A DNA stretch of 64,000 nt, taken from NCBI GenBank assembly GCA_026770705.1, contig JANJGN010000008.1, positions 24,242,001-24,306,000 on the forward strand. The letters are read 5' to 3'. The notes beneath the pieces are model-generated. The model was not told the DNA's origin and did not search any database. It was given only the letters and a program-made list of their open reading frames with translations. Numbering within the stretch: the stretch's first letter is position 1; the number at the start of each line of letters is the position of its first letter. This document shows, one piece after another, positions 1,245 through 55,780 of this stretch. Position numbers and translations under genes: made by a program. Source of the stretch: Isurus oxyrinchus. Its lineage: Eukaryota.

Positions 1245-2425
1245 GGCTGGGATTTTCCATTCTCGCCAGCATTGGGCATGTTCAGTGGCGTGAGTGGACA
1301 ATATGTCACTATCAGTTTCATGACAGCATGAAACCAGTTTGTGATTGTCCACTCAGCCTGCCAATGGCAGGCCATCAGCATATTGTTATAAGGCCAGCTC
1401 ACTGGACTCATCCCCCCTCCCCCCCAACCCTGCTGAATCATCCGCCCACTTAGGCAAGAAAACACAAAAACGTGCTTCATAACAGCACATAAGCGACATG
1501 CACTTGGTGGGCTGCATTTCGCTCAGGACTTCAAAGTTTTTTTGACTACCTTGTTTCAGTCAGCACTCACAGTCATCCTTGTAGGGAGGCTCACAGGTAG
1601 GTCTCTACCTACCAGATCAGCTATATGTGGCCTACTTTTCAATGGCTGCAGGGCAAGATCTTGCTTAGGAAAGGGGGAGAAGTGGCCTCAGGCAAGGGAA
1701 GAGGCTGCAGGACGAGAGTCGTACTCGGGAAGGGGGTTAACCCAGGGGGTATGTGGGGGCACATGTTGATTTGTTCAAGTGGCAGCAAGATGGTGAGGGT
1801 TGAAGAGGTGGTCTCCAGAGGAGATGAGGCCAGATGGACATGTGAGGGTGTGTGTGAGAATGGGCGGTGATGTCCCTTGAGCTGGCAGTGAGTGAGATGC
1901 CAGTGAATGTGTGATGGGCTTGTGTGTGAGCTTAGAGTGATGAGATAGTTGCCATACCCTGGCTGCACAGATGAGATCATTCATCCTCTGCATTGGATGG
2001 CCAACATCTTCTGTGTAACATTGGCATTGATCACCACTGCCATCACCTACCAAACCGGAGTGGTCATGTTGCTGCCCCTCCTGCAGCCAGAGTGGGGTTA
2101 GACAACATCACAGCGGGCCTCCACGGCATCCAAAGGGCACCCGAGGCTTGGAGTCTTCTTGCCTTTAGGGGCTATGTCTTGTTTGCTGCTGCCCTGAGCT
2201 GGAAACACTGAGCGTGGCTGTACTTTAAATGTGGTGCCTGGCGTGAGGAAGCAGCGAGGTGACAGTGTGGTGGGCCAATGAGATCCCGCAGCGGAAATGA
2301 TGTGCTTCCTGGGAATGCATAAGCAATGCGGTTGGTTTGGGACACTATGTCGTGAAAATCCACCATCGCGGTTGACGGGTAAAAAGGTGTTTTACCTGCC
2401 CACTATGCACAGAGCAAATTTGGGA
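1245..2425 (-). mobile_element. Harbinger-type Myb-carrying element, copy 1 (internally deleted)
   Basis: 1245-1450 is homologous to the reverse complement of 35140-35371 (ggctgggattttc terminus). 1958-2420 is homologous to 31770-32263. Retains Myb exon 1 (2175-1958, start codon mutated to ATA, donor agg|gtatgg). Confidence 0.75.
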
Positions 2426-4789: not shown

Positions 4790-6478
4790 AGAGGCTGAGG
4801 AAATAATAATTTGGAATCAGGAAATGGCAGAGGAGTCGAATAAATATTTTGCATCAGTCTTCACAGTAGAAGACACGATAGAATTCCAAAAATGCTAAAT
4901 AATTAAGGGGCAAAAGGCGGGGGGAGGAAATAAATACAATAACTAGCACTTGAGAAAAGTACAAGGGACACTAATGGGGCTAAAGGCTAATAAGTCCCTT
5001 GGACCTGATGGATTGCATCCTAGGATATTAAAGGAAGCAGCTACACAGATAGTGGATGCACTGGTAGTATCCTTCCAAGAATCTTTAAATTCTGCAAAAG
5101 CCCCAGAGGATTGGAAAACTGCTAATGTACCACCCTTATTCAAAAATGGAGGGAGACTAAAAACAAGTAACTATAGGCAGTTAGCTTAACGTCCATCATT
5201 GGGAAAATGTTAGAGTCTATTATAAAGGATGTAATAGCAGAGCATTTAGAAATGCATAATATAATCAAGCAGAGTCAGTATCGCTTCATGAAGGGGAAGT
5301 CATGCCTGACAAATTTGCTAGAATTCTTTGAGGAGGTAACAAGTAGGAACGAGTAGATGGAATATATTTGGATTTCCAAAAGGTGTTTGATAAGGTACCG
5401 CACATAAGGCTACTTAATAAGACAAAAGTCCATGGTGTTGGGGGTAGTATGGATAGAGGATTGGCTAACGAATTGAAGACAGTGAGTTGGGATAAAAGTG
5501 GCATTTTTAGGATGGCAGCCTGTAACTAGTGTAGTCCCTCACGGATCAGTGCTGGGGCCACAATTATTCACAATATATATTAATGACTTGGGTGAGGGAA
5601 GTGAATGTACTATTGCCAACATGGCAGATGGAATATAATGTGGGAAAATGTAAGGTTAAACACTTTGGCTGGAAGAATAGAGGAGCTGAATGTTATTTAA
5701 ATGGAGGAAGAATTGATGAGCTGAATGTTATTTAAATGGAGAAAGACTGAAGAAATCTGCAGCACAGAGGGATTTGGGGGTCCTCGTGCATGAATCCCAA
5801 AAAGCTAGCATACAAGTTCAGCAGTTAATAGGTTAAGCAAATGGAATGTTGGTCTTTATTTCAAAGGGAATGGAGTATAAAAATAGGGAAGTCTTGCTAA
5901 AACTATACAAGGCACTAGTTAAACCACACCTAGAATACTGTGAACGGTTTTGGTCCCCTTATCTAAGGAAAGATATACTGGCATTGGAGGCAGTCCAGAG
6001 AAGGTTCACTAGGTTGATTCCGGGTATGGAGGGATTTTCTTATGAGGACAGGTTGAATAGGTTAGGCTTGTACTCATTGGAATTTAGAAGAATGAGAGGT
6101 GACCTTATTGAAACATATATGATTTTAGTGGGCTTGACAGAGTAGATGCTGAGAGGTTATTTCCCCTTGTGGGAGAGTCTAGGACCAGAGGGTATAATCT
6201 CAGAGTAAGGGGGTGCCCATTTAAAACAGAGATGAGGAGGAATTTCTTCTCTCAGAGGGTAGTCAATCTGTGGAATTCTTTACCACAGAGGGCTGTAGAA
6301 GCTGGGTCATTGGGTATATTCAAGATAGACAGATTTTTAATCACTAGGAAATGAAGGGTTATGGAGAAAAGGCAGCAAAATGGAGTTGAGGATTATCAGA
6401 TCAGCCATGATCTCATTGAATGGTGGAACAGACTCAATGTGCTGAATTGCCTACTTCTGCTCCTATGTCTTATGGTCA
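4790..6478 (+). mobile_element. CR1 LINE, 5'-truncated ORF2 (RT) with frameshifts
   Basis: [84 protein letters not shown]; cttatg-type tail. Confidence 0.95.
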
Positions 6479-7250
6479 TATCATTATACCGGCAGGAAAA
6501 CACGCTGGCCCAGAACATGTCTGGACAAGTGTGAAATGTAGGAGTCAGGGCTTACCGTTAGGGCCTTGCTCACATTACAGACATCCGAGGAGCAGGAGAT
6601 GCTGGATCCCTACAGCAACCAGACCCTGGGAGTACACATGCATCACATGCTTAGTGGATTCTCATGGACATGGCTCCACTGCAAAGCAGCTCTCAGAAGG
6701 TGGGAGGTCTTTGTTGATGTCTCAGGTTTGCTTCAGAACATCACAGTCTTGGTCACGGGCCACTATGAATGATCGGCGAGGCGGAGAAAGAGGAAGTTCC
6801 AGTTGGGGGTTGGTGGTGGGAGAGGAAGGTCTAGGTTTAACTGGGAGAGGAAGGTGGGGGTTTAGGTTGGGAAGGAGGAAATGAAGATGTCAGGGTGGTG
6901 AAGTTGGCATGACTTGTCAGGCATGACTTCCCTTTCATGAAGCCATGAAGCAGGGGGGAGGAGGGAGGACCAGGGGAGGAGGGTGTAACAGTGGGGAATG
7001 TGGCAAGTGGGAGGTAGGTATAAGGGGGAGGAAGGTGTAAGGGAAGGAGTGGTGGGGGTGTAAGAAGTTCAGGGGGAGGAAGGAGTCTTGGGGGGAAGAA
7101 AGAGTTATGAGGGGTTAAGGAGTCCAGGGGGAGGAAGGAGTCCAGGAGGAGGAAAGAGTTCGGAGGGGGAAGGAGTAAGGGTGGCAGAGGGAAAAGGGGT
7201 GGAGGAGGTGAATGTGCCATTGAGGAAATTCTGTGGGATCAATGACTTAC

Positions 7251-7975
7251 CTCTTGGGGAGTGAACTGACAGTGGGCATAGTAAGAGGGAATGGTGAGCA
7301 TAAGAGGAGGCAGAGTAAGCTGGAAGGTTGGGAGGGTGTGGGTGCGACAGTAGCAGTAGAAGGAAAAATGAGGGTGGTTGGTTGGTTGGTAGGGACTTGG
7401 AGGCAGACATGGACACTGGGGGTGGGGAGGAGGAGATCAGGAAGGTCAAGGTGGAAAGGGGTGGGATTCTCAGGAAGGTAGGGAATGTGCACATCCTCCT
7501 CGACAGCCTGGAAAGAAAAGGGTTCTGGTTAGCACCGTGATTGGGGAGGTGGAAGGTGATGCCTGGGGTGGAGTCAATAGTGTTAGGGGAAAGGACATGG
7601 GTGATTGGGGGAGGGGAAAGGGTGGGGGAGCTGAGCAGAAACGTGATGACCACCATGTTTCTCAAATCAAAAGTGAGCAGAGTCTCGTGTTGGACAGGCA
7701 CAGGTGCTGCATGGTAGTGCAGTCAGTGGGTGGTTGGAGATACAGGTTAGCTCAAATACACAACTGAAAGAGAGGCCCGGCAGGCAGCATTGAAAATGCT
7801 CAGGGCGCTGAGATGATTGTGATGGAGGAAGGCTCCGCATGTCTGGGAGAAACCTTGCCCGAGCTCTGAAAGGCCCTGCCACACACACACTTCTCCCTCC
7901 AGAATCACTCGTTGTCCGTCGGCATGCAGTTGAACTGCTCGTGGTGGAGGGATGCAGGGAAAGGACTGGCAAAGC
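7251..7975 (-). pseudogene. Unidentified exon-like segment within the Harbinger-type element (frameshifted)
   Basis: Bounded by ttcatttacag|G (7975) and GAG|gtaagt (7251). Corrected translation aligns with 33580-34235 of copy 3 with conservative substitutions. No known domain recognised. Confidence 0.45.
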
Positions 7976-8032
7976 CTGTAAATGAAGCTGAAGGACACCA
8001 TTACACATTATTCAGTGAAAGTGAATTTACTT

Positions 8033-9743
8033 TCAGATTATAAAATTCTCAACTTTTCTAGGCCTACTATTTCTTCTAGGTGCTGCCCTGACATCCGCAG
8101 CAGGGGCGGAGACAGCCTGTGCAATGGTTGGCCCTGTTACCTCTGATGACTTCGGAGCGTGTCATCTGGACAGCCAAGGCCTTGATGGCCCCGGCTTGGT
8201 TTGGCTGTCCTCCTGTGGACCAGCTGCTCCCTCTGCAGTGACACAGGAAGAGGCTGAGGGGATCGCAGCCAAAGGGGACTTGGTGAGACAGGACAGTATC
8301 TGAGATTCCTGAGTGGATGACCCAGGGATGTCCAGCTGCTGCTTCTCCTTCATTTGGGTGACCAAGCGCCCCGGCCTGACTCCTCGAGGAGAAGGAGAAC
8401 CTGGAGGGGCATAGAGGTACCCCGTTTCCCTCTTGCACTGCCACTGCAGGAAGTCACACATGGCTGCCACGATGGAGTGCAGGTCTGCGCGCATCTCTGT
8501 GTTCGGCTGGATCAGGATGTCCATGGCACCTGCAATCTTTCCCATGGAGACTGCCTTGTGCACACATGTGGGCACCACTTCATCAAACAGCAGGTGGATA
8601 CACTCCTCCAACTTGTGTGCCACTCTGTTGAGGGCTTCCAACAGCTTTGCGTGATGTTGCCCCACCTTCTGCTGACTCTCCACAGTGAGATGGAAAGCCG
8701 AATCCAGAGGCTCATCATCCAACTCAAGCCTCACAGATGCCTCTTCTCCAGCAGTCCTCCGAGTGCCAGGGAGCTCGGCTGAACCTGCCACATCGTGCTG
8801 AGGGCACGTATCCGTGCACCACCAGATTGTGAACCCGAGCCTGCTCTAGATCTAGGTCCCACCGAGGTGTGTGTCTCTGCGTTGGTGGAGGGTGTGGGTA
8901 AGCGCTGTGCTGGGTCTTCCAGGCTGTTTGTTTCCAGCTGTTCATTGGAGGAGTAATCATTTTGGCTGGAGGTGAGGTCGTGGATGGAGGTGAGGGACTG
9001 GTTGGCTGAGGGCATTGGTCGCTTGGCAGAGCTCCCTGTGAAACCAGGTAGACATAATTAGGGCATGGCAGCAGAGTCAAAAGCAGGAGAGAGAGCACTC
9101 ACAGTTGCGTTGAGAGGGATGATGTGGTGTAGGATCGTCACGTGAGTGTCCACCACCGGCCGCACCATTGCTGCAGGCAGTGTCCATGTCCTCACTAGTC
9201 ACCGCGATGTCACACTCCTCAAAGTGAGTGAGGAGCCTAATGTGGGATCTCTCCCTGCTGCTGTGACCCAGCTTCTTCTGCATGAAAACAGATGCAGAAA
9301 GCATGGGCAGGAGACATGTCCCTGCATGGAATGTTTGTGTGGTGTGGTGGACAAGATGAGGACATGAGCTCCAGAGGATATGAGCCTGATGGAGGTGTGA
9401 GAGTATATGTAAGAGTCTGTGGTGTTGACCCTTAAAATGTGATATCCCTGAGGATATGCAAAGAGTTTGTGAGTATGTGAGTCGGGAATGATGAGGTGGT
9501 TGACCTTTCCTGGTAGAATGGATGCTAGCATTCATCCTCTTCCTGTACTGGATGGCTGATCTCTCTGCTCTGGTGGCACTGACCGCTGCTGTCACCAGGC
9601 TGGATTGTTGACTCTGGTGGACCTCTGGCAGCCAGGAAGGAAAGGTAGAGGACACCATGGAGGTCTTCCACTGCATCCAATAGGCACCCCAGAGAGGCAC
9701 CATTAAAGTTGAGGGCTGCCGTCTTCTTTGCTTTCAGGGGCAT
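8033..9743 (-). pseudogene. Myb/SANT-like DNA-binding protein gene (Harbinger ORF2, NAIF1/MSANTD-like), 3 exons
   Basis: Exon 1 ~9743-9512 (MPLKAKKTAALNFNGASLGCLLDAVE...RSAIQYRKRMN). Exon 2 9277-9142 (acceptor ttcatgcag). Exon 3 9035-8033 (acceptor ttcacag; coiled-coil, then basic C-terminus APRRNSRPRKV). Frameshifts and stops present. Confidence 0.8.
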
Positions 9744-9769
9744 ATGTCGCATGGACGATTCCACCTTTA

Positions 9770-10459
9770 GGCCAGGATTTTCCTGTCAGCAAATGTGGGG
9801 GGGGTCCCTGGAGGGGTGGGGCCCGCTCACAGACACGTAAAATGACGCACAGTGATGTCGGGCGGATCTCCCGATGTCACCGTGCCCCATTTAAATTTTC
9901 AGGTAGGTGGGGGCTCAGCAAAATCAGCTGTGCGCCTGCCGAGCTGTTAACGGCCAATTGAGGCCATTGACAGAGTCATTAAAGTAATTAACGGACCTGC
10001 CCATCCAACCTTAAGGTTGTCGAGCAGGCCAGGAGGCCTGGCGGGCATTAGAAAAAGCACGAAACCTCATCCATGGACGGGATGAGGTTTCATGTAGGTT
10101 TTAAAAAATGTAATTAAAGTGGTTTTAAAAGTTATGGACATATCAGGGACATTATTTTTTTCTATTTTTAATATTTTTCAATGGGCAGCTAATCACCCCG
10201 AGGCAGCATTTTGCCTTAAGGAGATGAGTGCGCTCTTTCATGCACATGCACTAAAGAGCGCACTCTCTGCTGAGGGATTCCCCTCCCACCCACACAGGGA
10301 GTGCATAGCGCTTCCATGCAGACGTCATGCTGATTAAGGCCCGCCCACGTAAAATGGCAGTGTGCCCCCGATTGGGGGGTGCCAATCGGAGCATGCCTCC
10401 GCGCACCCGCTCTTCAACATCCCCCCCCCCCCCCCAACAACGGGGGGAAAATTCTGCCC
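9770..10459 (-). mobile_element. Harbinger-type MITE, TSD TTA
   Basis: TIRs ggccaggattttcc / ggaaaattctgccc; tta on both flanks; homologous to the reverse complement of 60265-60964. Confidence 0.9.
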
Positions 10460-20270: not shown

Positions 20271-21208
20271 AAACTTGATCAATATCCTTGGCAGATCCAT
20301 CTACTCCAAATGTGGCTGAGGGAGACCAAGAGTGCATTAAACCTAGGACACCATTATTATTGGCCAAGGTTGCAGTCCCAGGAGAATGGCCTTGGGTCAA
20401 TGTAAAAGACACTTGCTGTCCTCTCTCAAGACAAAAGCATGTCTGTGCGCCAACCAACCACTCCACCAGTGCTCTTGCTAATGCTACATACCCAGTTGGG
20501 CCAGACTGCCTTTCTTCCAACTAAGATGTTGCAGTCTGCAGTCTGAACTTCAAGGCCCAGCACTAAAGGTCATCCAGCACAGTCATTTAAATGTCCTCAA
20601 TGGAAACTCAGTAGTCTTCCATTTTCCAAGTTGTAGGCACTTGGCAGGTAGCTCATTGGTGCAATGGGTAAACAGAAACAGAGAAAAAAACTCTAGAGGT
20701 TTGCATAAGAATTTCTTTTAATTATTCCAGTTAACTGCTATTCAAACCTGCAGTGAGTTGTGGAAGAGAAGGTGATTTTCTGATTTTGGCATTTGTAGTG
20801 AAGTGGGTGCAAAACTCATGAGGCTGGTCTAAAGGATGGAATCGAATATTGGTGATAAGGATGATGGTGAGACAGATCGCAGAACTGTTGGTATATTGGG
20901 AATGTGAATAATGTCTTGCTGAAATATTCTTGGATGACTTACTCTCATCTTGGCAACTAGTGTGGCTGGTTGTTGATGCTATTCCTGCCCTTCCTCCTCT
21001 TTCTGCTGCTCTACATCTGCCTCACCTCCCCCTTACCTTATCTTAATGCCCAGGTGATGGTAAGGACTGGTTCCTCATACAGCAAATTTATGTAGCATAT
21101 GACTACAAATTTGGAAACATAGTCAGAGCTCCTCCTGAATGGGTTGGTCAGCAGAAATATTGTTTGAGCTTGCTGGTGATCTTCTCAGTAATATTTCTGG
21201 TGGCACCA

Positions 21209-22010
21209 TGGCCAAATGCAGCAAGACCTGGACAATATCCAGGCTTGGACTGACAAATGCCAAGTAACATTTGCGCCACACAAGTGCCAGATAATGACTA
21301 CCTCCAACAGGAGAGAATCTAACCATCGCTGCGTGATGTTCAATGGCATTACCATCACTATCAACATCCTGGGTGTTACAATTGAGCAGAAACTGAACTG
21401 GACCAGCCATATAAATACTGTGGCTACAAGAGCAGGTCAGAGGCTTGGAATCCTGTGACAAGTAACTCACCGCCTGACTGCCTAAAGCCTGTCCATGATC
21501 TACAAGGCACAAGTCAGGACTGTGATGGCATAGTCCCCATTTGCCTGGATGAGTGCAGCTCCCACAACACTCAAGAAGCTTGACACTATCCAGAACAAAG
21601 TAGTTTGCTTGATTGGCACTACAACCACAGACATTCATTCCCTCCACAGTAGCAGCAGTGTGTACCATCTATAAGATGCACTGCAAGCTTCTAAGACAGC
21701 ACCTTCTAAACCCACAACCACTACCATGTAGAAGGACATGGACAACAGATAAATGGGAACACCACCACCTGGAATTTCCGCTCCAACTCACTCACCATCC
21801 TGACTTGGAAATATATCGCCATTCCTTCACTGTCACTGGGTCAAAATCTTGGAAGTCCCTTCCTGACAGCACTGTGAGTGTACCTACACCACATGGACTG
21901 CAGCGGTTCAAGAAGACAGCTCACTACCGCCTTCTCAAGGGCAACTAGGGATGGGCAATAAATACTGGCCCAGCCAGAAAAGCCCACATCCTGTGAATTA
22001 ATTTTTAAAA
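21209..22010 (+). mobile_element. CR1-group LINE family B, 5'-truncated
   Basis: MQQDLDNIQAWTDKCQVTFAPHKCQ...ILGVTIEQKLNWTSHINTVATRAGQRLGIL; characteristic 3' tail. Confidence 0.9.
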
Positions 22011-31585: not shown

Positions 31586-32021
31586 GTCAGTCAGTGCATC
31601 TGCATGTCATATATAAGAGGGAAAGGATAGCTTCTGTGCCAGCTCACAAGAGGGCAAGGTTGTGGATGAGTTCTGATACAATAAACTCTGATTAGGACTT
31701 TTGATGGGGTAGCATACAGAAAAATGCTGATGGGCTTGACACATTGTGAAAATCTGGCATGATTCTGCCCAAAGTGCAGTTGTGGGCGGGTGAAACAACG
31801 TTTTATCCACTGGCCAGAATGGTGGCTTTACACATGGTATTGTCCCAAACCCGCCACATTAATTATGTATTCCTGGGAAACATTCCTTTTTGATGGCGGG
31901 CAGGCTCTCAGTTGCCTGCCATGCCATCACCTCGCCACTTCAGAACTCCAGTGCCATATTTAAAGTCCAGCTGTGTGCACACCTCTCAGTGCTTCCAGCC
32001 CATGACTACTGCAAAGGAGAC

Positions 32022-33575
32022 ATGACCCTGAAAGGCAAAAAGACTGTAGCCCGCAGGTTCAATGATATGTCCCTCGAGAACTTTTTGGATGCAGTGGAGG
32101 CTCGCTGTGATGTCCTCTACCCCTACTCTAGCCGCAGCATGGCAGCAACTTCACTAATTCGGCTTGGGAAGCCGTGGCAGTGGTGGTCAGCGCCAATGCC
32201 CTTCAAAAGAGGACAGCCACCCAGTGCTGTAAAAGAATGAATGGTCTCATCTGTTCCACCAGGTTAATTCACTCTTCTCATCACTCTCAACTCACACACT
32301 CACAAACACATCACACATCCACAAGGCTTCACATTTCAAGGGACAACACCACTAACTCTCACACTCACCCTCACATCCCCATCAGGATCATATCCTCTCG
32401 AGCTCACGTCCTCACCCTGTCCATGGCTCCGCTCACCATGCAAACATTCCATGCAGTGCCATGTGTCCTGCTCACACTCTATCCATCTGTTTTCATGCAG
32501 GAGAAGTCTGCTCACATCAGTGGGAGAGGTCCCAGGCTGGGGGTGGAGTGGCCCACATTAAACCCCTCACTCACTTTGAGGAGTGTGCCATCACACTGGT
32601 GAGGGCATGCACCGTGCCTGTGGTGACTGAGAGGTCGGCGGTGAACACCCTCGCAAGGATCCTGCACCACATTATCCATCTCTCAATGCAAATGTGTGCT
32701 CTCTCTGCTACTTTTGACTCTGCTGCCATGCACTAATTATCTCTACTTTGGTTCACAGGGAACTCTGCCAAGTGACCGACACCCTCAGCCAGCCAGTCCT
32801 CCGCTCCATCCAGGTCCTCACCTCTAAGTAAGAGGACATCTCCTCCATTGAAGAGCTGGAAATAGGCAGCCAGGAAGACCCATCACAGTGCTTACCCACA
32901 CCCACCACCAGCGCAGAGACACACACCTCGGTGGAACCTAAATCTAAAGCAGGCTCAGATTCACAATTTGATGACCATTGCAGCAGGAGGCAGGTTCAGC
33001 TGAGCTCCCGGGCACTCAGAGACTTGTTGGGGATCAGGCATCAGTGAGGTCTGAGTCAGATGACGAGCTTCTAGATTTGGCCTTCCAACTCATCCTGGAG
33101 AGTCAGCAGAAGGTGTGAGAACATCACACAGAGTTGTTGGAAGCCCTCAATAGAGTGGCTCATGAATCAGAGGAGTGCATCAGCCTGCTCTCTGATGAAG
33201 TGGTGCCCATGTGTACATGTATGGAGGTCTCCATGGGGAGGATGGTGGACACAATGGAGATCCTGGGCCCAGCAGAACATGGAGATGTGTGCAGACCTGC
33301 ACTTCATCGCGCTAGCCATGGGTGAGTTCCTGCAGTAGCAACATGAGAGGGAAACGGCGCACCTTAGCATCTCTCTAGGTGCTCCTTCCCCTCAAGGAGT
33401 CAGGCTGGGGCACCTGTGCATCCAAAGGGTGAAGGAGCGGCAGCTGGAAACCCCTGGGTCATCCAGTCAGGAATCTCATCCACTCAGGAGTCTCAGGGGC
33501 TGTCCACTCCACCCAAGTGCCCTTTACCTGTGAACCCCTCAATCTCATCCTCTGTCACTGCAGAGGTAGCAACTG
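32022..33575 (+). pseudogene. Myb/SANT-like DNA-binding protein gene (Harbinger ORF2), 3 exons
   Basis: Exon 1 32022-32263 (MTLKGKKTVARRFNDMSLENFLDAVEARCDVLYP...W.AVAVVVSANALQKRTATQCCKRMNGL). Exon 2 32501-32652 (tttcatgcag|GAGAAG). Exon 3 from 32759 (ttcacag|G). Intron positions match copy 2. Confidence 0.8.
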
Positions 33576-34449
33576 GCCAATGTGTGATTCTGGAGGGAGA
33601 AGTGTGGGTGTGGCAGGACCTTTCGAAGCCTTGTGCAAGCACTCTCACACACATGTGGATCCATCACGTATCATATCAATGCCCTGAGAATTTTCAATGC
33701 TGCCTGCTTGGGTTTGCTTTCAGTTGTCCATCTGAGCTGACCTGCAACTCTGCCCACCCAATGATCACACTCCCATGCAGCACCTGATCTCACCCACCAT
33801 GACTCTCGTTTCACTTTTGACCCTGGACAGCATGGTCGGGATCTGGTTTCTCATGCACTCCCCATCTTTTCCCCTCCCAAGTCACTAATTTCCTTTCCCC
33901 CATCACAGCTGACCCCCCAGGGATTACCTTCCACCTCCCATTCCATCACAGAAGGTCACCTAGCAGCCGCAGCCCTTTTCCTTCAGAGATGACCAGTTGA
34001 ACCCATATATTCCCTTCCTTCCTGAAAAGCCCACCCCCATCCACATTCGCCTCCCCATATTCCTCATTCCCACTCCCAGGGTCCGTGTCTGCCTCCAAGT
34101 CCCCACTAACCACCCTCGTTGTCCCTTCTACTGCTACCGTCGGACACTGACCCTCCCACCCTACCACATAACTCTGCCCTTGGTCATTTTCGCCATTTCC
34201 TTGTACCACGCCCACCCTCAGTCCTCTCTCCAGGAGTCAGTCATGGGACCCATCAGACCCCTCCTTTGCACATTCACCTGGATGTCCCTTCCTTGGGACC
34301 CCTTCCCCTTGCTGAACCCCTTCCCACCTGGAACCCCTTCACACCGCACCCCCACAACCCCAACTCCCCCCATTTGGACATCCCCCCCACCCCCAGCTGC
34401 TTAATCCCTCTGGATTCCCTCAGACTTCCTCTGCCACCCTTAGTCCTTC

Positions 34450-34680
34450 CCTCACTGACACCTCCCTCCAGCCTTACCTCTCCCTCTAGCCTTACCTTTC
34501 CCTCCAGCCTTACCTCTTCCTCCAGCTTTACTCCTTCCCCCTTCCTGACTCCTTCCTCTGCCCTTACTTCATCCTCTACCCTTACTCCCTCCCCTCTCTG
34601 CACTCCTTCCTCCCCCAGACTTCCTCGCCACTCCACATTCCTCCCTCCCTGAACTCCTTCCCTTACACCTTCCAACCCCT
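34450..34680 (+). repeat. 18-bp pyrimidine-rich tandem repeat inside the element
   Basis: Unit ~ccttacctctccctccag; counterpart in copy 2 at ~7050-7200 (ggaaggagtccaggggga). Confidence 0.75.
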
Positions 34681-36281
34681 TACACTTACCTCCCCCATTG
34701 CCATCTTCTTCCCGTTACCCCCCTCCTCCCCCCATACTCCCTCCCCCCCCTCCCAACCTCACCCTCCCCGACATCTACATTCTCTCCCTGCCAACCTCAC
34801 CCCCACTGACACCTTCATTCCCCCATCCCAACCTCACCCCCCTGATACCTCTTCCTCTCCCAGTTGATCTTAGACCTTCCTCCTCCACCCCCTCGACCAT
34901 CATCCACTGTGAGCATCAATGGTGACTTTCTATCTTCCGTGAGCTGCTTCACAGCAGAGCCAGGACCATGAGAATCCACCCAGCATGCCATGGACGTTCC
35001 TCCAGGATCCCATTGCTGTCAGGCTCCAGTATCTTCTGCTCCTCGGATGTCTGCCCTGTGAGAAAGGCCCTAGCGGCAAGTCCCGACTTATGCACATCAC
35101 AGTTGTCAAGACATTTTCTGCACCAAAACATTAGTGTTTTCCCGCTAACGTGGGCAGTGGCGGGGGGATGAGATTGGCGAGCTGGCCTTATAATATGTTA
35201 ACATATTACAATGAGGTTCCCGATGTCCGATGGCGGGGAATGTGGCCTGCTGAGTGGCCAATTGCAAACTGGTGAAAACGATGTCATGAAATCAATTTTT
35301 GGGCTTCTCGCCATATGTCTGCTCACACCACCAAACACGCCTGACTCCAGCGGGCACAGAAAATTGCAGCCATTGGCAGGCCTGCCGCAGAGCCACTTGT
35401 CACTGAAGGACCATGGAGGAGTCCAGTTCCAGCAAGGCATAGGGTATCATTCAGAGCTTGGAGCCCATCCTTTCCACTGTGGAAATGGTGGCCGACTACA
35501 TGACTGCACCAGTAGACCCTTCCATGATGGAGCATCTGGTGGCTACTGTCGCAGCTTTCCTTCCTGACCTGCTGAATTAGCTAGACGAGGGGGATGGATG
35601 GCTGTTGGGTGGATAAGTCTTTGGCATTCAGACCGCAGCCGGGGAGGGAGTGATTGGAAAGGACTGAAGGGAGAACAGAGACATCAGTGGATGGTCGGCA
35701 AGTAGAGTTCAAAGACTTGAGGGGATATTGGATGCAGTTGGTTCAGGGAAAGAAGGGTTGGGGGTGGATTGGTTTGGATGGCAGGGGAGATGGGGAGGGG
35801 TGCTGGGTAATCAGAAAGGTCGAGTAGGAGATCAGAAAGATTAGATTGGGAAGCCAGATGGGAGTTAGGTGTTGTGAGGGAGATATGAAGGGTTGTAGGA
35901 CGATTGCAAGGACTGGGGAGGAGATCGTGGCAGGAGAATATCCAATCACAGGGAGGCGTTAGGGCTAGGCAGAAGCTGCTACGTTGAATCCAACAAGAAT
36001 GAGGAAAAACACTGGCCTGCTGGATCTGGCATTCTTGTCTCCCTATAGCTACCAGGTTAAATTTAAAATTTGGATTAAATTGGAGGCACACAGCCTCCTA
36101 ATATTTAAATGAGGGATCTGCCTCCTGAAATGTGACCTCCCTTTCTGTCTCCATTCAAACTGGAAGCAACAAGTTTGAGGTATGTTGGGGTCAGATTCAA
36201 GATGTTTATGCAGCATCCCACCTGTCTGATGGGGTTAACGTTCCAGTGTAAGTATTTGACATAAAAAGTATTGGAGAAAGT

Positions 36282-37340
36282 AAAACAAAAACAGAATTAC
36301 CTGGAAAAACTCAGCAGGTCTGGCAGCATCGGCGGAGAAGAAATGAGTTGACGTTTCGAGTCTTCATGACCCTTCGACAGAACTTGATTTCGAGTCCAGG
36401 AAAGAGTTGAAATATAAGCTGGTTTAAGGTGTGTGGGGGGGGGCGCGGAGAGAGAGAGAGAGACAGAGGTGCTTGTGTAGACAAACAAGCAGTGATAGAA
36501 GCAGATCATCAAAAGATGTCAGTGACAATGGGACAAAAGAACACATAGGTGTTAAAGTTAAAGTTGGTGATATTATCTAAACGAACGTGCTAATTAAGAA
36601 TGGATGGTAGGGCACTCAAGGTACAGCTCTAGTGGGGGTGGGGGGAGCATAAAAGATTTAAAAATATTTAAAAATAAGTGGGAAAAGAAAAATCTGTAAA
36701 ATTTATAGGGAAAAAAAAAAGGGGGGAAAAAAAGGGGGGGAAAACAGAAAGGGGGTGGGGATGGGGGAGGGAGCTCACGACCTAAAGTTATTGAATTCAA
36801 TATTCAGACCGGAAGGCTGTAAGGTGCCTAGTCGGAAGATGAGGTGTTGTTCCTCCAGTTTGCGTTGGGCTTCACTGGAACAATGCAGCAAGCCAAGGAC
36901 AGACATGTGGGCAAGAGAGCAGGGTGGAGTGTTAAAATGGCAAGCGACAGGGAGGTTTGGGTCATTCTTGCGGACAGACCGCAGGTGTTCTGCAAAGCGG
37001 TCGCCCAGTTTACGTTTGGTCTCTCCAATGTAGAGGAGACCACATTGGGAGCAACGAATGCAGTAGACTAAGTTGGGGGAAATGCAAGTGAAATGCTGCT
37101 TCACTTGAAAGGAGTGTTTGGGCCCTTGGACGGTGAGGAGAGAGGAAGTGAAGGGGCAGGTGTTACATCTTTTGCGTGGGCATGGGGTGGTGCCATAGGA
37201 GGGGGTTGAGGAGTAGGGGGTGATGGAGGAGTGGACCAGGGTGTCCCGGAGGGAGCGATCCCTACGGAATGCCGATAAGGGGGGTGAAGGGAAGATGTGT
37301 TTGGTGGTGGCATCATGCTGGAGTTGGCGGAAATGGCGGA
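36282..37340 (-). repeat. 1059-bp inverted copy of the PLE 3' region
   Basis: Mirror ORFs in the track are identical except LISS vs LVSS; coordinates pair with a constant sum of 76280. Confidence 0.97.
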
Positions 37341-39505
37341 TTTCCGATGCTGAACGTTCAGTGCTCAGCAAAGGACTTAGTTTCATACCCTTACGCCCTC
37401 ACCTCAATGAATTTCGGGCTCGGCATGATACTGAACTCTTCTTTCGCCGTCTTCGTCTCCGGGCTCACTTCTTTGGGCAGGAGTCCTCTCCCAGTTCAAC
37501 GGATCCTTTTACCCATCTCCAATATTCTCCCTCCACCTGGACCCCTCCCTCTGGATTCTTACCTTCTCTTGATCTTTTCATTGAGAACTGTCGGCGCGAC
37601 ATTAGTCGTCTCAATTTCTCTGCTCCTCTCACCCATTCTAACCTGTCTCTCTCTGAACTTACTGCACTCCATTCTCTCAGGTCCAACCCTGACATTGCCA
37701 TCAAACCCGCTGACAAGGGTGGTGCTGTTGTTGTCTGGCGCACTGACCTCTACCTCGCGGAGGCTGAGCGTCAACTCGCAGACACTTCCTCCTACCTCTC
37801 CCTGGACCATGACCCCACCACTGAACATCAGGCCATTGTTTCCAGGACTGTCACTGACCTCATCTCCTCTGGGGATCTCCCTCCCACAGCTTCCAACCTG
37901 ATAGTCGCCCAACCTCGGACGGCCCGCTTCTATCTCCTACCTAAAATCCACAAACAGAACTGCCCCGGTAGACCGATCGTCTCAGCTTGCTCCTGCCCCA
38001 CAGAACTCATTTCTCGTTATCTTGACTCCCTTCTCTCTCCCCTTGTCCAGTCCCTTCCCACCTACATCCGTGATTCCTCTGACACCTTACGTCACATCAA
38101 CAATTTCCAGTTCCCTGGCTCCAACCGCTTCCTCTTCACCATGGACGTCCAATCCCTCTACACCTCCATCCCCCACCAGGATGGTCTGAGGGCCCTTAGC
38201 TTCTTCCTCGAACAGAGGCCCGAACAATCCCCATCCACCACTACTCTCCTCCGTCTGGCTGAACTTGTTCTCACGTTGAACAATTTCTCCTTCAACTCCT
38301 CTCACTTTCTCCAAATAAAAGGTGTGGCTATGGGTACCCGCATGGGCCCCAGCTATGCCTGTCTCTTTATGGGATATGTGGAACATTCCTTGTTGCAGTC
38401 CTACCCCGGCCCCCTTCCACAACTTTTTCTCCGGTACATCGATGATTACTTCGGTGCCGCTTCATGCTCTCGTCGGGACTTGGAAAAATTTATTAATTTT
38501 GCTTCCAATCTCCACCCCTCCATCATTTTCACGTGGTCCATCTCTGACACTTCCCTTCCCTTCCTTGACCTCTCTGTCTCAATCTCTGGTGATAGACTGT
38601 CCACTAATATCCATTACAAACCCACCGACTCTCACAGCTACCTCGACTACAGCTCCTCACACCCCGCTTCCTGTAAGGACTCCATCCCATTCTCCCAGTT
38701 CCTTCGCCTTCGTCGCATCTGTTCCGATGATGCTACCTTCAAAAACGGTTCCTCTGACATGTCCTCCTTCTTCCTTAACCGAGGTTTTCCACCCACGGTC
38801 GTTGACAGGGCCCTCAACCGTGTCCGGCCCATCTCCCGCGCATCCGCCCTCACGCCTTCTCCTCCCTCCCAGAAACATGATAGGGTCCCCCTTGTCCTCA
38901 CTTATCACCCCACCAGCCTCCGCATTCAAAGGATCATCCTCCGCCATTTCCGCCAACTCCAGCATGATGCCACCACCAAACACATCTTCCCTTCACCCCC
39001 CTTATCGGCATTCCGTAGGGATCGCTCCCTCCGGGACACCCTGGTCCACTCCTCCATCACCCCCTACTCCTCAACCCCCTCCTATGGCACCACCCCATGC
39101 CCACGCAAAAGATGTAACACCTGCCCCTTCACTTCCTCTCTCCTCACCGTCCAAGGGCCCAAACACTCCTTTCAAGTGAAGCAGCATTTCACTTGCATTT
39201 CCCCCAACTTAGTCTACTGCATTCGTTGCTCCCAATGTGGTCTCCTCTACATTGGAGAGACCAAACGTAAACTGGGCGACCGCTTTGCAGAACACCTGCG
39301 GTCTGTCCGCAAGAATGACCCAAACCTCCCTGTCGCTTGCCATTTTAACACTCCACCCTGCTCTCTTGCCCACATGTCTGTCCTTGGCTTGCTGCATTGT
39401 TCCAGTGAAGCCCAACGCAAACTGGAGGAACAACACCTCATCTTCCGACTAGGCACCTTACAGCCTTCCGGTCTGAATATTGAATTCAATAACTTTAGGT
39501 CGTGA
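37223..39505 (+). CDS. PLE reverse transcriptase + GIY-YIG endonuclease (chimeric N-terminus)
   Basis: LSKGLSFIP, KPADKG, YLLPKIHK, GRPIVS, MDVQSLYTSIP, QIKGVAMG, RYIDD, LPFLD; Cys linker CPRKRCNTC; VYCIRC..C..LYIGET, RFAEH, E...I..LGT....GLN. No stops. Confidence 0.93.
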   Translation: MEEWTRVSRRERSLRNADKGGEGKMCLVVASCWSWRKWRISDAERSVLSKGLSFIPLRPHLNEFRARHDTELFFRRLRLRAHFFGQESSPSSTDPFTHLQYSPSTWTPPSGFLPSLDLFIENCRRDISRLNFSAPLTHSNLSLSELTALHSLRSNPDIAIKPADKGGAVVVWRTDLYLAEAERQLADTSSYLSLDHDPTTEHQAIVSRTVTDLISSGDLPPTASNLIVAQPRTARFYLLPKIHKQNCPGRPIVSACSCPTELISRYLDSLLSPLVQSLPTYIRDSSDTLRHINNFQFPGSNRFLFTMDVQSLYTSIPHQDGLRALSFFLEQRPEQSPSTTTLLRLAELVLTLNNFSFNSSHFLQIKGVAMGTRMGPSYACLFMGYVEHSLLQSYPGPLPQLFLRYIDDYFGAASCSRRDLEKFINFASNLHPSIIFTWSISDTSLPFLDLSVSISGDRLSTNIHYKPTDSHSYLDYSSSHPASCKDSIPFSQFLRLRRICSDDATFKNGSSDMSSFFLNRGFPPTVVDRALNRVRPISRASALTPSPPSQKHDRVPLVLTYHPTSLRIQRIILRHFRQLQHDATTKHIFPSPPLSAFRRDRSLRDTLVHSSITPYSSTPSYGTTPCPRKRCNTCPFTSSLLTVQGPKHSFQVKQHFTCISPNLVYCIRCSQCGLLYIGETKRKLGDRFAEHLRSVRKNDPNLPVACHFNTPPCSLAHMSVLGLLHCSSEAQRKLEEQHLIFRLGTLQPSGLNIEFNNFRS

Positions 39506-39895
39506 GCTCCCTCCCCCATCCCCACCCCCTTTCTGTTTTCCCCCCCTTTTTTTCCCCCCTTTTTTTTTTCCCTATAAATTTTACAGATTTTTCTTTTCCC
39601 ACTTATTTTTAAATATTTTTAAATCTTTTATGCTCCCCCCACCCCCACTAGAGCTGTACCTTGAGTGCCCTACCATCCATTCTTAATTAGCACGTTCGTT
39701 TAGATAATATCACCAACTTTAACTTTAACACCTATGTGTTCTTTTGTCCCATTGTCACTGACATCTTTTGATGATCTGCTTCTATCACTGCTTGTTTGTC
39801 TACACAAGCACCTCTGTCTCTCTCTCTCTCTCCGCGCCCCCCCCCACACACCTTAAACCAGCTTATATTTCAACTCTTTCCTGGACTCGAAATCA

Positions 39896-39935
39896 AGTTC
39901 TGTCGAAGGGTCATGAAGACTCGAAACGTCAACTC
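39896..39935 (+). ncRNA. Minimal type-I hammerhead ribozyme motif (core CUGUCGA)
   Basis: agtt / CTGTCGA / agggtc-atgaa-gactc / GAAA-c-GTC / aact: stem I, stem II and palindromic ACGT stem III. Mirror copies at 36345-36384(-) and ~46878-46917(-). Confidence 0.75.
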
Positions 39936-41344
39936 GTTTCTTCTCCGCCGATGCTGCCAGACCTGCTGAGTTTTTCCAGGTAATTCTGTTTTTGTTTTGC
40001 ATTTCCAGCATCCGCAGTTCTCTTTGTTTTTATATTGGAGAAAGTAAAGTTTGTGGATCAAAATCGTGCATCATGCATGTGGTTCTTGATAATGTAGATA
40101 CAGTATATGGTATTTCAGACCACCTTACATTCTAAAAATAGGAAAATTGGCTTCATCACACCAAAATCTCTCTGTAGAGTACAAGAGCAAAATACAGCAG
40201 ATGCTAGATATCTGGAATAAAAATAGAAAATGCTGGATAGCAGGTCAGGTAACATCTGTGGAGGGAGAAACAGAGTTAATAACCTGAGTGTTTCCAGCAT
40301 TTTCTGTTTTTATCTCTGTGTTAAACGTTAAGTTTCCTTCCAGCTGTAGGACAAATGCCTTGAGTCCTTTTTTTACAAAATATTGGTAAGTCAAAAAAAA
40401 GGCATTATGTATAGAACTCAATTCTGCTATGAGGGAATTTCACCTATGCCATAACTAAATTCCTTTATTTCAGTTGTTGAATGAAGAAAATAGTCATAAA
40501 AACAAAGAAGTGCTGAAAATACTCAGCAAATGGTAGCATCTGTGGAGAGAAAAACAGAGATAATATTTTGAATCGAAAAGCCATAATAGTTTCAGACATC
40601 AAATGGTAGCTGCAGCTTGTTCCTCCACTAAATTCAGTAATGATGGTACGAGAGGGGGGACTGGGCAGAGGACTAGTTTTGTGTTAGTAAGTAGAAATTT
40701 TTAGGAATGGACAAAAACATGCAGCTCAGCAAGACTCTCCATTTTTGGTGGATCAGTTGTACTTGATGTTAGGTAATTGGCTGAGTACAGAAAGCCTTGT
40801 TTTAAATCCTGGCAAAGTGCACTTTTCAATGGTGGGTAAAATGCCTGATAAAGGCAGCTTTCATTGGGTAGTCTCTCTCTTTCCATGCACCTTCTCACCA
40901 TAGCTCCATTCTTTCTTTCCCCAGAATTACATAATTGTCTCAATCAATTTTTATTGTCTGTTTCAATGTTTACTGCTAACTTAATTTGCAACTCTATTAC
41001 ACATTGGGTGATTTTTTTTCTCCCTGACAGACTTCCTTTCTTACTCCAAACTTCCTAATTTTTCATTTGAATCCAATACTGTTGAACCCTACAACGCTGA
41101 ATAATTCATCTGGATCAACTTTATTGACCTCTTCATGATGGTGAAAAATGCAACTAGATTAGATCAAAGTCTCATCTTTGGCCAGTGTTCAAGAAGAACT
41201 TGAATTGATTAATATCTTTATAAGTGGCCAGTGAAACTCTCCCTTTCTCTCACTAACATGTTAAGTGATGTCACTATCAGGGCTTACATCAGAAGAGCTC
41301 TTCCATTCTTGCAATTCACACATGGGATCATTGTAACCATCAGC

Positions 41345-45559: not shown

Positions 45560-46300
45560 AGCAACTCACTTTGCCAGTCTTTGGGAGCAACATGAGTGGT
45601 ATTCGCCACTAACAGGATGCTGCCATCAAGCCAAAAAGATGTTCTGCCCATCATACAAATGAGTAATGTGGTATATGAATTTCAATGTCAGTGTGATGCT
45701 GTACACCCCAAAGTCTGGCAGACCATATCAAGCAACATGTCCCAGTCGCTGTTCGCAACAGGCAAGGTAGAGACTTTACCCGACCAGTCTGTTCTTGCAA
45801 AACTCAAAACATATTGCCCAACATTAGATGTGATTCCACGATTGGACAACATTTGCTAAACAATCCTCAGTGTGCTAAGAATTACACTGATGGCCAATTT
45901 AAGATTGTCAATCGAGCTTGCCGTGTGGCGCATTTGCGTGTACTGGGAGCTACATATATTAATACACAGGGCCCTGTGCTTTGCAGACAGAAAGAACATT
46001 GGACCTATTTCAGGTAAACAAAATAAGTGACAGGATTTGGTGACTCTTCCTCAGGGCAATGCCTTGACCAATCAGGATCAAGCTGCCTGGTTTGAATTTC
46101 AAACATTGTTTGGCAGTTAAATGTCAGTCACCATCACTGGTGCATTCTCCATGGCAATGCCTCTATCAAGCAGAGTTCACTTGCCAACCATCAGCATTCT
46201 CTTCTCATACAGTATAAATTGTTGTTTTCCCCTTATTTTGGTCTTCTTGCAAAGTGTCCTGATGAGTGCAAGACAAAAATCTTTGACATGTCTCTTTTTT
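45560..46300 (+). mobile_element. Penelope-like family 2 (Poseidon/Penelope-type), GIY-YIG region and 3' end
   Basis: KDVLP..QMSNVVYEFQCQCDA, STIGQHLLNNP.C, P.LCRQKE; hammerhead tgtc-CTGATGA-gtgcaagac-(g)AAA..tttgaca at ~46255-46288. Confidence 0.85.
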
Positions 46301-46386
46301 CACCTTCCAGTGAGCTTGCCTGATTTTAGTGGACATCTATTAAAGGATGCAAATGAGGGTCTAGTAATTGTTTAAGGACACAACTA

Positions 46387-47288
46387 GGGGAGAATTTTCT
46401 TCTCGTCAGGATCGTGTGGGGGTGGGCGCAGGCGGGCGCACAGCCGATTGGTGCCCCTGATCAGCTGGACACCGCCATTTACGTGGGTGGGCCAATTAAG
46501 GCCCACCCAGCGTGACGCGCGCCGGGAAGCGCTGTGCACTCCCTGTGCGGGTGGGGGGAGGTTGCCTGAGTCGGGAGTGTGCTCTTTCGCACATGCGAGG
46601 CACCTCTGTGCCTCAGGGAGATTAGTTTTAAGTTTAAACAGTTTAATAAAGTGTTGAAAAAATTTTATGACGTCCCCACATGTGAAACTGTCAGATGAGC
46701 TGGGACATGTGCGTTAATTTTAATGAAATTTTTTCTGAAAATTTTAAATCATTCATGAAACCTCATCTCGTTCCATGAAAAATGCAAAAGCCACCTGGAC
46801 TTTTCACCTCAACAAAAACAAAAGCAGAATTACCTGGAAAAACTCAGCAGGTCTGGCAGCATCGGCGGAGAAGAAAAGAGTTGACGTTTCGAGTCCTCAT
46901 GACCCTTCGACAGAACTTCGAAACGTCAACTCTTTTCTTCTCCGCCGATGCTGCCAGACCTGCTGAGTTTTTCCAGGTAATTCTGTTTTTGTTTTTGTTT
47001 TGGATTTCCAGCATCCGCAGTTTTTTTTGTTTTTATGGACTTTTCACCTGCCCGCCAACCTAAAGATTGGACGGGCAGCTCAGCTAATTGCCATAATTGC
47101 TTTTTAACAGATCTTAATAGGCCTGTGACAGTTCGGCAGGCACGCAGCCGACTCCACTGCGCGCCCGCTGAACTGAAAACCTAAATGTCGCACGGCGACA
47201 TCGGGACGTACGCCCGACATCACCCCACATCATTTTATGCCTTGGCGAGCGAGCCCCATCCCCGCTCGCTGAGCCGAAGATTCTGCCC
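46387..47288 (+). mobile_element. Harbinger-type MITE containing a nested mini-PLE
   Basis: ggggagaatttt ... agattctgccc termini; homologous to 60265-60964; flanked by aacta on both sides. Confidence 0.85.
46810..47035 (+). mobile_element. 226-bp fold-back mini Penelope-like insertion
   Basis: 14-bp TSD tggacttttcacct (46796-46809 and 47036-47049); inverted arm 46811-46918, forward arm 46918-47035; near-identical to 39895-40032. Confidence 0.95.
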
Positions 47289-47629: not shown

Positions 47630-48235
47630 CTCTGCAGAGAAAGAGGCGGGAAGTCTATCCCATTGGCATACAGAGGTCAGGAGCATCATACTGACAGTCC
47701 AGCAAAGAGCACTTTAAGGAGTCTCCACTTTATCAGAGAGGCTGTCACAGAGCTATGTCACTCATCTCATCATCAGCTGCAGCCCAACAAATCTCACACT
47801 CATTCTTACCTCGGACTTTGAAAGCCATTGTCACCCTGAATTTTTTTAATGCCTTGAGATATTTCTCAGTTGAAGCAACATTTGTCAATTGGCTGTTCAT
47901 GCCTGCAACAACCAGGTGATGGATATGCTCTTTCCTGGGGTCAGTGACTTGAACTCTTTCCCTTTCAAGGATAGGAAGCAGGAAGGGAGACTTCTGGGTT
48001 TCGCCAGAACTGTGATCTCCCCAGAGATGCAGGCCATCATCAACTTCACACATGATCTTGTGAGCTCTACCACAAGACCCTGGAATATGGATCAACAGGA
48101 AGGGCTTCTACTTGCCAAATATGCTGTTGCTGTTAGTCAACATGCAACACATCATGCAGGTCTTTGCCAGGTAGCTTGGCAGCTGTTAGGATGCCTTTAT
48201 CCCACACCAGTCCTCAAATCCTGCTCTACCATCCA
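47630..48235 (+). pseudogene. Harbinger/PIF (HARBI1-like) DDE transposase relic
   Basis: LRSLHFIREAVTELCH; AVHACNNQVMDMLF...SFP...GFART..SPEMQAIINFTH; INRKGFY..NMLL....QHIMQVFAR*LGSC*DAFI, matching IDCTH / NRKG.HS.NVQ / PGS.HD of HARBI1-type enzymes. Confidence 0.8.
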
Positions 48236-49849
48236 CATCATTGGGTCAGAGGCCAGCTAATTGGAGACACTGACTGTAAGGACTTAAGCAAATCCAGGCA
48301 GAAATATATTGCAATAAATTGCAGTTCATCAGTTCTCACAGTTCTTTCTTTATAGAAGTTTGAGATAACAATATTTGTACCATAGGAAATAAGAACATTG
48401 TAACATTAGAGCCAGGGGTATGTCATTAAGCCCTGACCCGCCATTTAATTCTGCACCTCAACAAAAGCTACATCAACAACATGCAATTATATTGCACTTC
48501 TAACATAGTCAATCAGCCCAAGATACTTCACAGGAGTGTTATCAGATATAAAGCCATAGAAGGAGATATTAGGAAGCTGAACAAAAACTTGGTCAAATAG
48601 GTAGATTTTCAGAATTGTGTTAATAGGAGAAAGAGCAGTAGAGAGTTGGAGAGCTTCAAGGAGGGAATTCCAGTGCTTGGGGACTCCAGTGCTGAAGGTT
48701 TGGCTTCCAATGGTGGAGTGACCAAAATTGGACGTGTCAACAGGTCAGAATTGGAGGAACACAGAGGTCTCGGAGGTCTGTAGGGCTGGAAGAGATTACA
48801 GAGATAGGGAAGGGCAAGGTCATTGAGGGATTTGAAGGGTGGGAAACGTGGTGTGCAGGGTGATTTAAAGAGGTGGGATGGGAAATTTAGATTTCCCGAC
48901 AGGGGGTTGAGATGGAGAGATAAAGTCAGTGGGGCATTTGCGGCGTGTCAAGAATTATGCCGGCCTGTGGTTGGTTCCTACTTGAAATACATTTGCATCC
49001 ATGCATATTCATTAGTGTAAAACTTTTTTAAAATTATATCCTACCTTCAAGAAATAGCCAGCGGTGCACGAGAATCTTGTGGCACTTGGTTCACAAGCGC
49101 TTAAAGGTGGCGTGACCTGTTGGTTTTGTTCAGTTGTGTGTAAGGGCAGTGGTTTTCCTTGTTTAACTCTACAGCACAAAGGAGGGGAGCAGCACACTCG
49201 ACTCTTGCATGGAAGCTTGGGACTGGCAAGGGTGAGTCAATAGGGAGGGGGATTTTGAAGTGGGGTCAGGGGCTTGGAGGAGTGAAGTGAGACTGGTCTG
49301 ATGTCCTGGGTGTGGTGTGGGGATGTGGTGGGGCAGTCAGTAAAATTAGAAAATGAGTGTCCTAAAGGGTGGTGTCAGTACATTCCAAATATAGCTCCAT
49401 CTCAGAGTGTTGGTTGGCAGACTCTTTAAAGGGCTTTGATTTCAGCTACAACATTTCAATTCCCCTGCTGACAGTGATCTTGGACAATGCCTTTTACAAT
49501 GCATAGAACGGAGGGTAGCTGAGCCTATAGGTTCAGCCATGTCCCAAAGAGCGACGAGTACAACACTGGACGTTAACATGAACGTTCACTAAAGAGTGAA
49601 CGCAAAAATACAACATTGTTTCTTCCACAATAAAGGAAACGTCCCTTACTACCCAGTAACCATTAATGCATGCCAACCATGGGATGTACCAGTACATTTA
49701 GCCCTCCGACTAAACTACTCTCAACAAGTAATGATGGTGCACAAAAGTGCAGCCAATGGAAAGTGAAAAATTTACAAGTTAAGTTTAATTTTGAAAAATC
49801 CCCATGCCATCTTTGTGTGCTCAAGTGTTATGTAAATGGAAATGTAGTT

Positions 49850-54099: not shown

Positions 54100-54215
54100 A
54101 CCATTATAGTGTGACATAACCATCATGGTGTGACATGACCATTATAGCGTGACATAACCATCATGGTGTGACACGACCATTATAGCGTGACATGGCCATT
54201 ATGGTGTGACATGAC
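54100..54215. repeat. 19-bp minisatellite x6 with alternating 38-bp higher order
   Basis: accattatagygtgacata / accatcatggtgtgacayg alternate. Confidence 0.95.
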
Positions 54216-55382: not shown

Positions 55383-55780
55383 GGGCAGGATTTTCCCATC
55401 AATGACCGCTCATCCACACGTAAAATGACAGGGGATGACGTCGGGCGGATCTCCAGACATCACCGCGCCCCATTTAAATTTTCCAGTAGGCGGGGGCGCA
55501 GCAACATCAGCTGCGGGCCCGCCGACCTGTCAATGGCCAATTGAGGCCATTGACAGAGTCATTTAGCTAATTAATGGACCTGCCCATCCAACATTAATGT
55601 TGGCGGGCAGGCCAGGAGCCCCAGCGGCAAATAGAAAAAGTATGAAACCTCATCCACAGCCTTAATTGGCCCGCCTATGTAAAATGGCGCTGCGACCCCA
55701 ATCGGGAGTGCCGATCTGAGGCGCGCCGGTGCACGCCCGCAATTCAACTTTGCCCCCCCAATGGGGGGAAAATCCTGCCC
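55383..55780 (-). mobile_element. Harbinger-type MITE (internally deleted), TSD CAT
   Basis: TIRs gggcaggattttccc / gggaaaatcctgccc; cat on both flanks. Confidence 0.92.

Follow-up and report, generated by a model that had tools for sequence, protein, structure and literature searches.

Vertebrate Harbinger transposons have a convergent gene layout. Both Harbinger proteins are needed for transposition, according to the passages on this point in a fish survey (PMC9179366). The Myb-only arrangement and mobilization in trans are already described in other species, as far as the relevant sections of two accounts go (PMC8437027, PMC13668399). The solo-ORF variants of Harbinger-Snek in sea kraits encode only a Myb-like protein and number 452 intact copies in L. 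colubrina; the passages describing them present them as thought to be nonautonomous and to come from large deletions (PMC8437027). Harbinger-1M_cIno of Caenorhabditis inopinata is presented in its account as a MADF-bearing element with no DDE frame that expanded in the genome with transposase supplied in trans, and MADF-only elements make up 19 of 258 in that species (PMC13668399). The fish survey, in the part that treats distribution, reports no Harbinger in elephant shark and asks for other cartilaginous fish (PMC9179366). Our literature search for cartilaginous-fish Harbingers returned no paper, and shark Harbingers seem to be thinly described. We report here on three related Harbinger elements (copies 1, 2, and 3) in a 64-kb stretch of repeat-rich vertebrate DNA (the window).

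Copies 2 and 3 resemble the Harbinger-Snek variants, as these are portrayed in the sections cited, in being multicopy vertebrate Harbinger derivatives that encode only a Myb-like protein. The Harbinger-Snek variants are young and partly intact, whereas the copies here are ∼25% diverged and broken, and their transposase half is ∼1.5 to 1.8 kb of other sequence. With Harbinger-1M_cIno, in the published passages, they share the expanded one-gene structure that lacks a DDE frame; that element has been found to transpose, with MADF genes that are intact and expressed, while the copies here are known from decayed sequence. The likeness to autonomous PIF/Harbinger elements, as outlined in parts of two sources (PMC4482050, PMC9179366), lies in the Myb/SANT gene, the terminal motifs starting with G, and the TTA-flanked miniature inverted-repeat transposable elements (MITEs) and transposase remnants of the window. 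The difference from those elements, and from the "putative nuclease HARBI1" proteins of sharks, is that no DDE transposase is present in copies 2 and 3.

An earlier note had read a 725-nt segment of copy 2, at positions 7251 to 7975, as an exon of a third gene downstream of the Myb gene. We consider it probable that an abundant Myb-only Harbinger family, without a detectable transposase and likely copied in trans, includes copies 2 and 3 as decayed members, and that the segment is likely passive internal DNA and not a third gene.

Elements and abundance

The elements and a motif found in two of them are as follows.

1245..2410, minus strand: copy 1, with both end regions and the 5′ part of the Myb gene; segment match absent by BLAST
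6506..9748, minus strand: copy 2 of the Myb-only Harbinger family, delimited by BLAST against copy 3 and global alignment
31756..35371, plus strand: copy 3, the longest of the three; its Harbinger-type ends are degenerate, and its own segment lies at 33575 to 34279
35179..35192, minus strand: inward-facing TATA-like 14-mer of putative promoter function, near the end of copy 3 opposite the Myb gene

Copy 2 has lost both ends and is bordered by a CR1-like LINE at left and a MITE at right. The terminal motif of the window's MITEs is matched by the right end of copy 3 (35371) and by an end of copy 1 (1245); the left end of copy 3 is too degenerate for the pattern. No TWA target site duplication is recognizable at copy 3, and TTA flanks both sides of the MITE at 9770 to 10459. 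The TATA-like 14-mer recurs identically in copy 1 (1387 to 1400, plus strand), giving two matches in the window against 0.01 expected, and by its sequence and position is likely a leftover of the transposase promoter.

The region from 6400 to 9800 is matched by 84,289 records of DNA run X1 and 43,292 of DNA run X5, from two organisms; these counts include the CR1 tail, and depth does not equal copy number. All 30 of 30 bins of this region are covered by X1 and X5 contigs, with deep cover of both the segment and the Myb gene. Summed depth over the segment bins is 8,200 to 187,000, compared with 26 for a contig that matches this locus exactly. An abundant family clearly carries the segment as one of its regular components. 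Relative to the contig majority, A>G or T>C changes make up 159 of the 359 X1 difference sites, which we take as a sign of CpG decay in an old copy.

Other repeats in the window

Harbinger-type MITEs with the ends GGGCAG(G/A)ATTTT lie at 9770 to 10459, 55383 to 55780, 60265 to 60964, and 62090 to 62560; the first three are mutually 69 to 84% alike. One Harbinger-type MITE stands in place of the promoter end of copy 2. Another repeat family has two opposed copies, 45586 to 46305 and 61584 to 62793 (68 to 72% identity), each split by a Harbinger MITE. A Penelope-like element at 36272 to 40007 contains an open frame of 720 codons (37343 to 39502) for reverse transcriptase and GIY-YIG domains. Its last 1,069 nt recur in inverted orientation at 36272 to 37340 with 99.6% identity, so the element looks very recent. 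A short inverted pair of the same tail (46815 to 47022; 97% to 36282 to 36385) sits inside the Harbinger MITE at 46388 to 47288. A minisatellite at 54100 to 54215 has a 19/38-nt unit in 6 copies.

Myb/SANT gene

The predicted gene parts in copy 2 and the adjoining spacer are listed here.

9510..9743, minus strand: Myb exon 1 (Myb/SANT domain), frameshifted, with boundaries placed from sequence and not from RNA
9103..9277, minus strand: predicted Myb exon 2, from splice motifs and alignment
8033..9035, minus strand: predicted Myb exon 3, with an in-frame TGA at 8164 and the final stop at 8035
7976..8032, unstranded: AT-rich spacer behind the Myb stop, the last bases of which are the proposed acceptor

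Judged by splice motifs, alignment, and domain content, a Harbinger Myb/SANT gene is present in the element in broken form, and the segment has the downstream position relative to it that had been described. The Pfam match (PF13837, Myb_DNA-bind_4) is weak (E value, 0.018; 15.8 bits against a curated cutoff of 27) and comes from a frameshifted piece, the copy 3 counterpart of exon 1. The exon 1 donor of copy 2 reads GA instead of GT. Exon 3 displays triplet periodicity (P < 0.002), and 5 of its 6 indels between the copies shift the frame. Stops and frameshifts occur in the Myb genes of both copies 2 and 3.

Transposase search

The transposase query was the remnant at 47.9 to 48.3 kb, which yielded 10 proteins, 8 of which contain a DDE_Tnp_4 domain and were kept. 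The other two of the 10, P0004 and P0007, were repeat-like chance matches and were excluded from the profile. tblastn and the resulting HARBI1-type profile of 8 partial proteins were run over 2,556 six-frame windows. The six best-matching transposases examined are "putative nuclease HARBI1" proteins from three shark species, which makes a shark the probable source of the window. Two remnants served as controls.

47678..48264, plus strand: HARBI1-type transposase remnant, decayed, from another element; recovered as a positive control
21049..21231, minus strand: C-terminal part of a second transposase remnant (hmmsearch E value, 4e−6; tblastn E value, 1.5e−4); independent control

The remnant at 21049 to 21231 is interrupted by a LINE fragment. 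No tblastn or hmmsearch match to a transposase was obtained in copies 2 and 3 on either strand; the best tblastn hit (E value, 0.85) falls within Myb exon 3. The earlier remark that convincing transposase motifs are lacking is thereby confirmed, since the 8-protein profile was blank in these copies and recovered both controls. The description "transposase-less Harbinger" is likewise supported for copies 2 and 3 by the profile and by tblastn, both with working controls, and aligning the segment itself to HARBI1 transposases gave no match. Six-frame Pfam scans of both copies returned nothing credible; they carry no weight, because they also missed a known transposase remnant. Copies 2 and 3 have what is expected of a solo-Myb derivative, namely, multiple copies in which one gene is kept and the other is absent: there are two long copies in 64 kb, deep X1 and X5 cover, and no transposase in either copy.

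The segment does lie where the transposase would be in a two-gene Harbinger, in the opposite orientation to its partner as described in part of one account (PMC13668399), and it could be a transposase gene decayed beyond recognition or the noncatalytic part of one. We regard this as highly improbable, as the profile detects remnants at ∼37 to 40% identity elsewhere and none here (within what the 8 partial proteins cover), and these copies still have a readily legible Myb gene.

Shared segment

The segment is common to the two copies, as claimed: copy 2 (7206 to 7917) and copy 3 (33575 to 34279) share 71% identity by BLAST, and 477 of 637 alignment columns (75%) are identical. Four stretches of copy 2 bear on its interpretation.

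7909..8217, unstranded: stretch absent from copy 3, net ∼304 nt by global alignment; its loss takes away the acceptor at 7975 together with the 3′ end of the Myb gene
7535..7975, unstranded: upstream part of the proposed exon, conserved DNA without a coding signal
7254..7534, unstranded: core of ∼90 codons with a fossil coding-like signal, defined by periodicity and stop-free in-register frames
6800..7250, unstranded: tandem tract, pyrimidine rich on the Myb strand, with 18-, 37/38-, and 55-nt units (TRF)

The splice motifs proposed for copy 2 are there, acceptor-like at 7975 and donor-like at 7251, but neither is kept in copy 3, where the donor GAG|gtaagt reads GGAGTCAGT. The acceptor had been called strong, but only 8 of the 12 bases ahead of its CAG are pyrimidines, under the 9-of-12 cutoff that 8 other acceptor-like sites pass on the same strand between 8100 and 6500. 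The ∼304-nt deletion accounts for 9 of the 15 alignment joints listed (of 1,768), in 30 X1 and 36 X5 contigs; since it recurs in DNA contigs, it exists as DNA in a subfamily. Among the same 15 of 1,768 joints, none falls at 7975 or 7251, which is uninformative because none falls at the Myb introns either. Runs X21 and X24 were guessed to be RNA (X24 is probably DNA), and their contig cover is thin.

The proposed 725-nt exon has 4, 2, and 7 stops in its three frames, and its longest open reading frames (ORFs) are no longer than those in composition-matched random sequence (P = 0.08 to 0.31). The peptides quoted for it do occur in the translations, but the four blocks are spread over three frames of copy 2 and are separated by stops. 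Amino acid identity in the frames chosen earlier is 26/47, 23/44, 14/18, and 30/50, compared with 20 to 27, 21 to 24, 12 to 13, and 27 to 32 identities in the other five frames (blocks of about the same length). Identity is thus about equal in all six frames, including those with stops. At the DNA level, copies 2 and 3 are 75% identical over the segment and 72% over the core, compared with 79% and 89% over the Myb introns. Because six-frame identity is equal, the introns are more alike than the segment, and the ORFs are ordinary for their composition, we take the protein-level likeness to be a shadow of the DNA-level likeness.

In the upstream 440 nt, triplet periodicity is absent (P = 0.14 in copy 2 and 0.93 in copy 3), 6 of the 8 indels that separate the copies have lengths not divisible by 3, and 5 of the 6 frames of block 7818 to 7667 are interrupted by stops in each copy. 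Frameshifting indels are also frequent in Myb exon 3, so those in the segment are compatible with a former gene. One-base indels at 7535 and 7862 recur in 21 to 38 contigs per DNA run (among the 12 of 43 indels listed) but were not used as evidence, because one in Myb exon 3 (8817) recurs likewise. The segment has no blastn or tblastx match to the window's own CR1 and Penelope-like copies, which answers the suggestion of a nested transposable element as far as these families are concerned. The third gene proposed for the 725-nt exon is not borne out: the splice sites are specific to copy 2, an open spliced ORF with conserved splice sites was not found, and similarity is equal in six frames.

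Core and tandem tract

In copy 2, a (TGGT)4 run with 8 extra bases breaks the core. The extra bases had been corrected by hand, but they are real DNA: an X1 contig spans 7125 to 7412 with no differing letter and no gap. Triplet periodicity in the core is significant in the first half in copy 2 (P = 0.002; second half, P = 0.32) and in copy 3 (P = 0.008). The Myb-strand frame read earlier has 0 stops where 3.5 are expected, the in-register antisense frame has 0 where 9.9 are expected, and the remaining four frames have 3, 6, 11, and 8. The openness of the antisense frame noted before thus holds over the core, as does the predominance of codons ending in C (third positions are ∼50% C, compared with 41 to 45% C overall). 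The region was picked post hoc and the copies are not independent, so the coding-like signal is modest evidence.

On the Myb strand, the core could be part of a third gene or of an additional, fourth exon of the Myb gene, with splicing at 7975 and 7251 or elsewhere. Codon-position bias fits this strand best (r = 0.58 to 0.77 for three of four reference ORFs, compared with 0.37 to 0.57 antisense), with an r of 0.77 for both the Penelope-like ORF and the HARBI1 pieces. Silent changes lean the same way (22/88 against 17.9 expected; P = 0.18 [range, 0.18 to 0.28]), second-position mismatches are fewest in three blocks, and copy 3 has a 146-amino-acid (aa) open frame. In addition, the ∼304-nt deletion places GQCVILEG in frame behind the end of Myb exon 3 in copy 3, giving a 139-aa frame (33368 to 33787). 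Earlier frameshifts in copy 3 leave the read-through of the 139-aa frame in the subfamily founder uncertain. These points are opposed by splice sites that differ between the copies, stops in all three frames with the blocks in different frames, the 8 stronger acceptor-like sites on the same strand, and an ORF length that is expected in C/T-rich DNA. The Myb-strand ORF has an ESM recognition value of 947 with no usable match and an AlphaFold pLDDT of 40. Such a third gene or fourth exon is very doubtful.

Alternatively, the ancestor may have had a gene opposite the Myb strand that replaced the transposase and was transcribed from the inward promoter, with the core as the remnant of a Gly/Glu/Val-rich protein. 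The stop-free antisense frame, the enrichment on that strand of purines at first and of G/C at third codon positions, and the inward TATA-like motif are consistent with such a gene, and the 18-nt array also yields a 146-aa frame on the antisense strand of copy 3. However, the rarity of A-ending codons on the other strand automatically opens the antisense frame, and 37/38-nt repeats upstream on that strand disrupt it. Silent changes show no excess (10/55 against 11.2 expected; P = 0.71), in a test without power. The antisense frame has no Pfam or PDB match, an ESM recognition value of 1083 with a best match of 0.87, and a pLDDT of 37. We consider this gene quite unlikely. The silent-change test also fails for the true Myb frame (P = 0.42), and selection therefore cannot be judged from two copies that decayed neutrally.

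ESM Atlas and PDB sequence searches with either strand gave no usable match, and metagenome scans gave no match. The Myb-strand ORF had no match among proteins of 80 to 256 aa (57 candidates), an uninformative search, since the Myb exon 3 control was also blank. That control had no match at 124 to 398 aa or 474 to 2,000 aa, and the likely size of the whole protein, 399 to 473 aa, falls between.

The 18-nt array beside the core is also triplet periodic, and the tandem tract includes a ∼33-nt CR1 fragment (6914 to 6946). Derivation of the core from this tract was considered, but the BLAST likeness is lost under composition controls (P = 0.07 to 0.8), so a repeat origin is not established. The core would be what is left of an older ORF or, alternatively, an ancient repeat with a triplet period, and by its stop-free frames and periodicity, it may be an ancestral ORF on either strand. 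That it is a selected gene on either strand is possible, though doubtful.

Proposed history and significance

We favor the reading of copies 2 and 3 as decayed Myb-only elements, for which the following history is proposed. An ancestor with two opposed genes would have lost or replaced its transposase half. The segment would occupy the half that once held the opposite-strand transposase gene, a placement based on the inward TATA-like motif that survives at that end. The derivative would then have been copied by the transposase of relatives, since transposition needs both proteins in the published description available in part (PMC9179366) and transposase remnants lie nearby; the earlier phrase "mobilized in trans" is a reasonable inference. 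The segment would have been carried along as internal DNA, its similarity between the copies reflecting descent from one master copy, and a later deletion would have founded the copy 3 subfamily. It is unlikely that a high-copy shark Harbinger instead swapped its transposase for an unrelated gene, expressed from the former transposase promoter or through splicing behind Myb, and then spread in trans, leaving the core as the trace of that gene.

Our literature search turned up no report of a third gene in a vertebrate Harbinger. In 2007, Casola and colleagues reportedly described Drosophila PIF-like elements with a third ORF in which the transposase is retained. Should the core prove to be a genuine additional gene, those elements would provide the precedent; they differ in reportedly keeping their transposase, and the third ORF here is putative.

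An abundant Myb-only Harbinger family in a probable shark extends the pattern known from sea kraits and a nematode, a result of little weight as it stands. If the core is truly a selected gene, the family would represent a rare cut-and-paste element that replaced its transposase with cargo.
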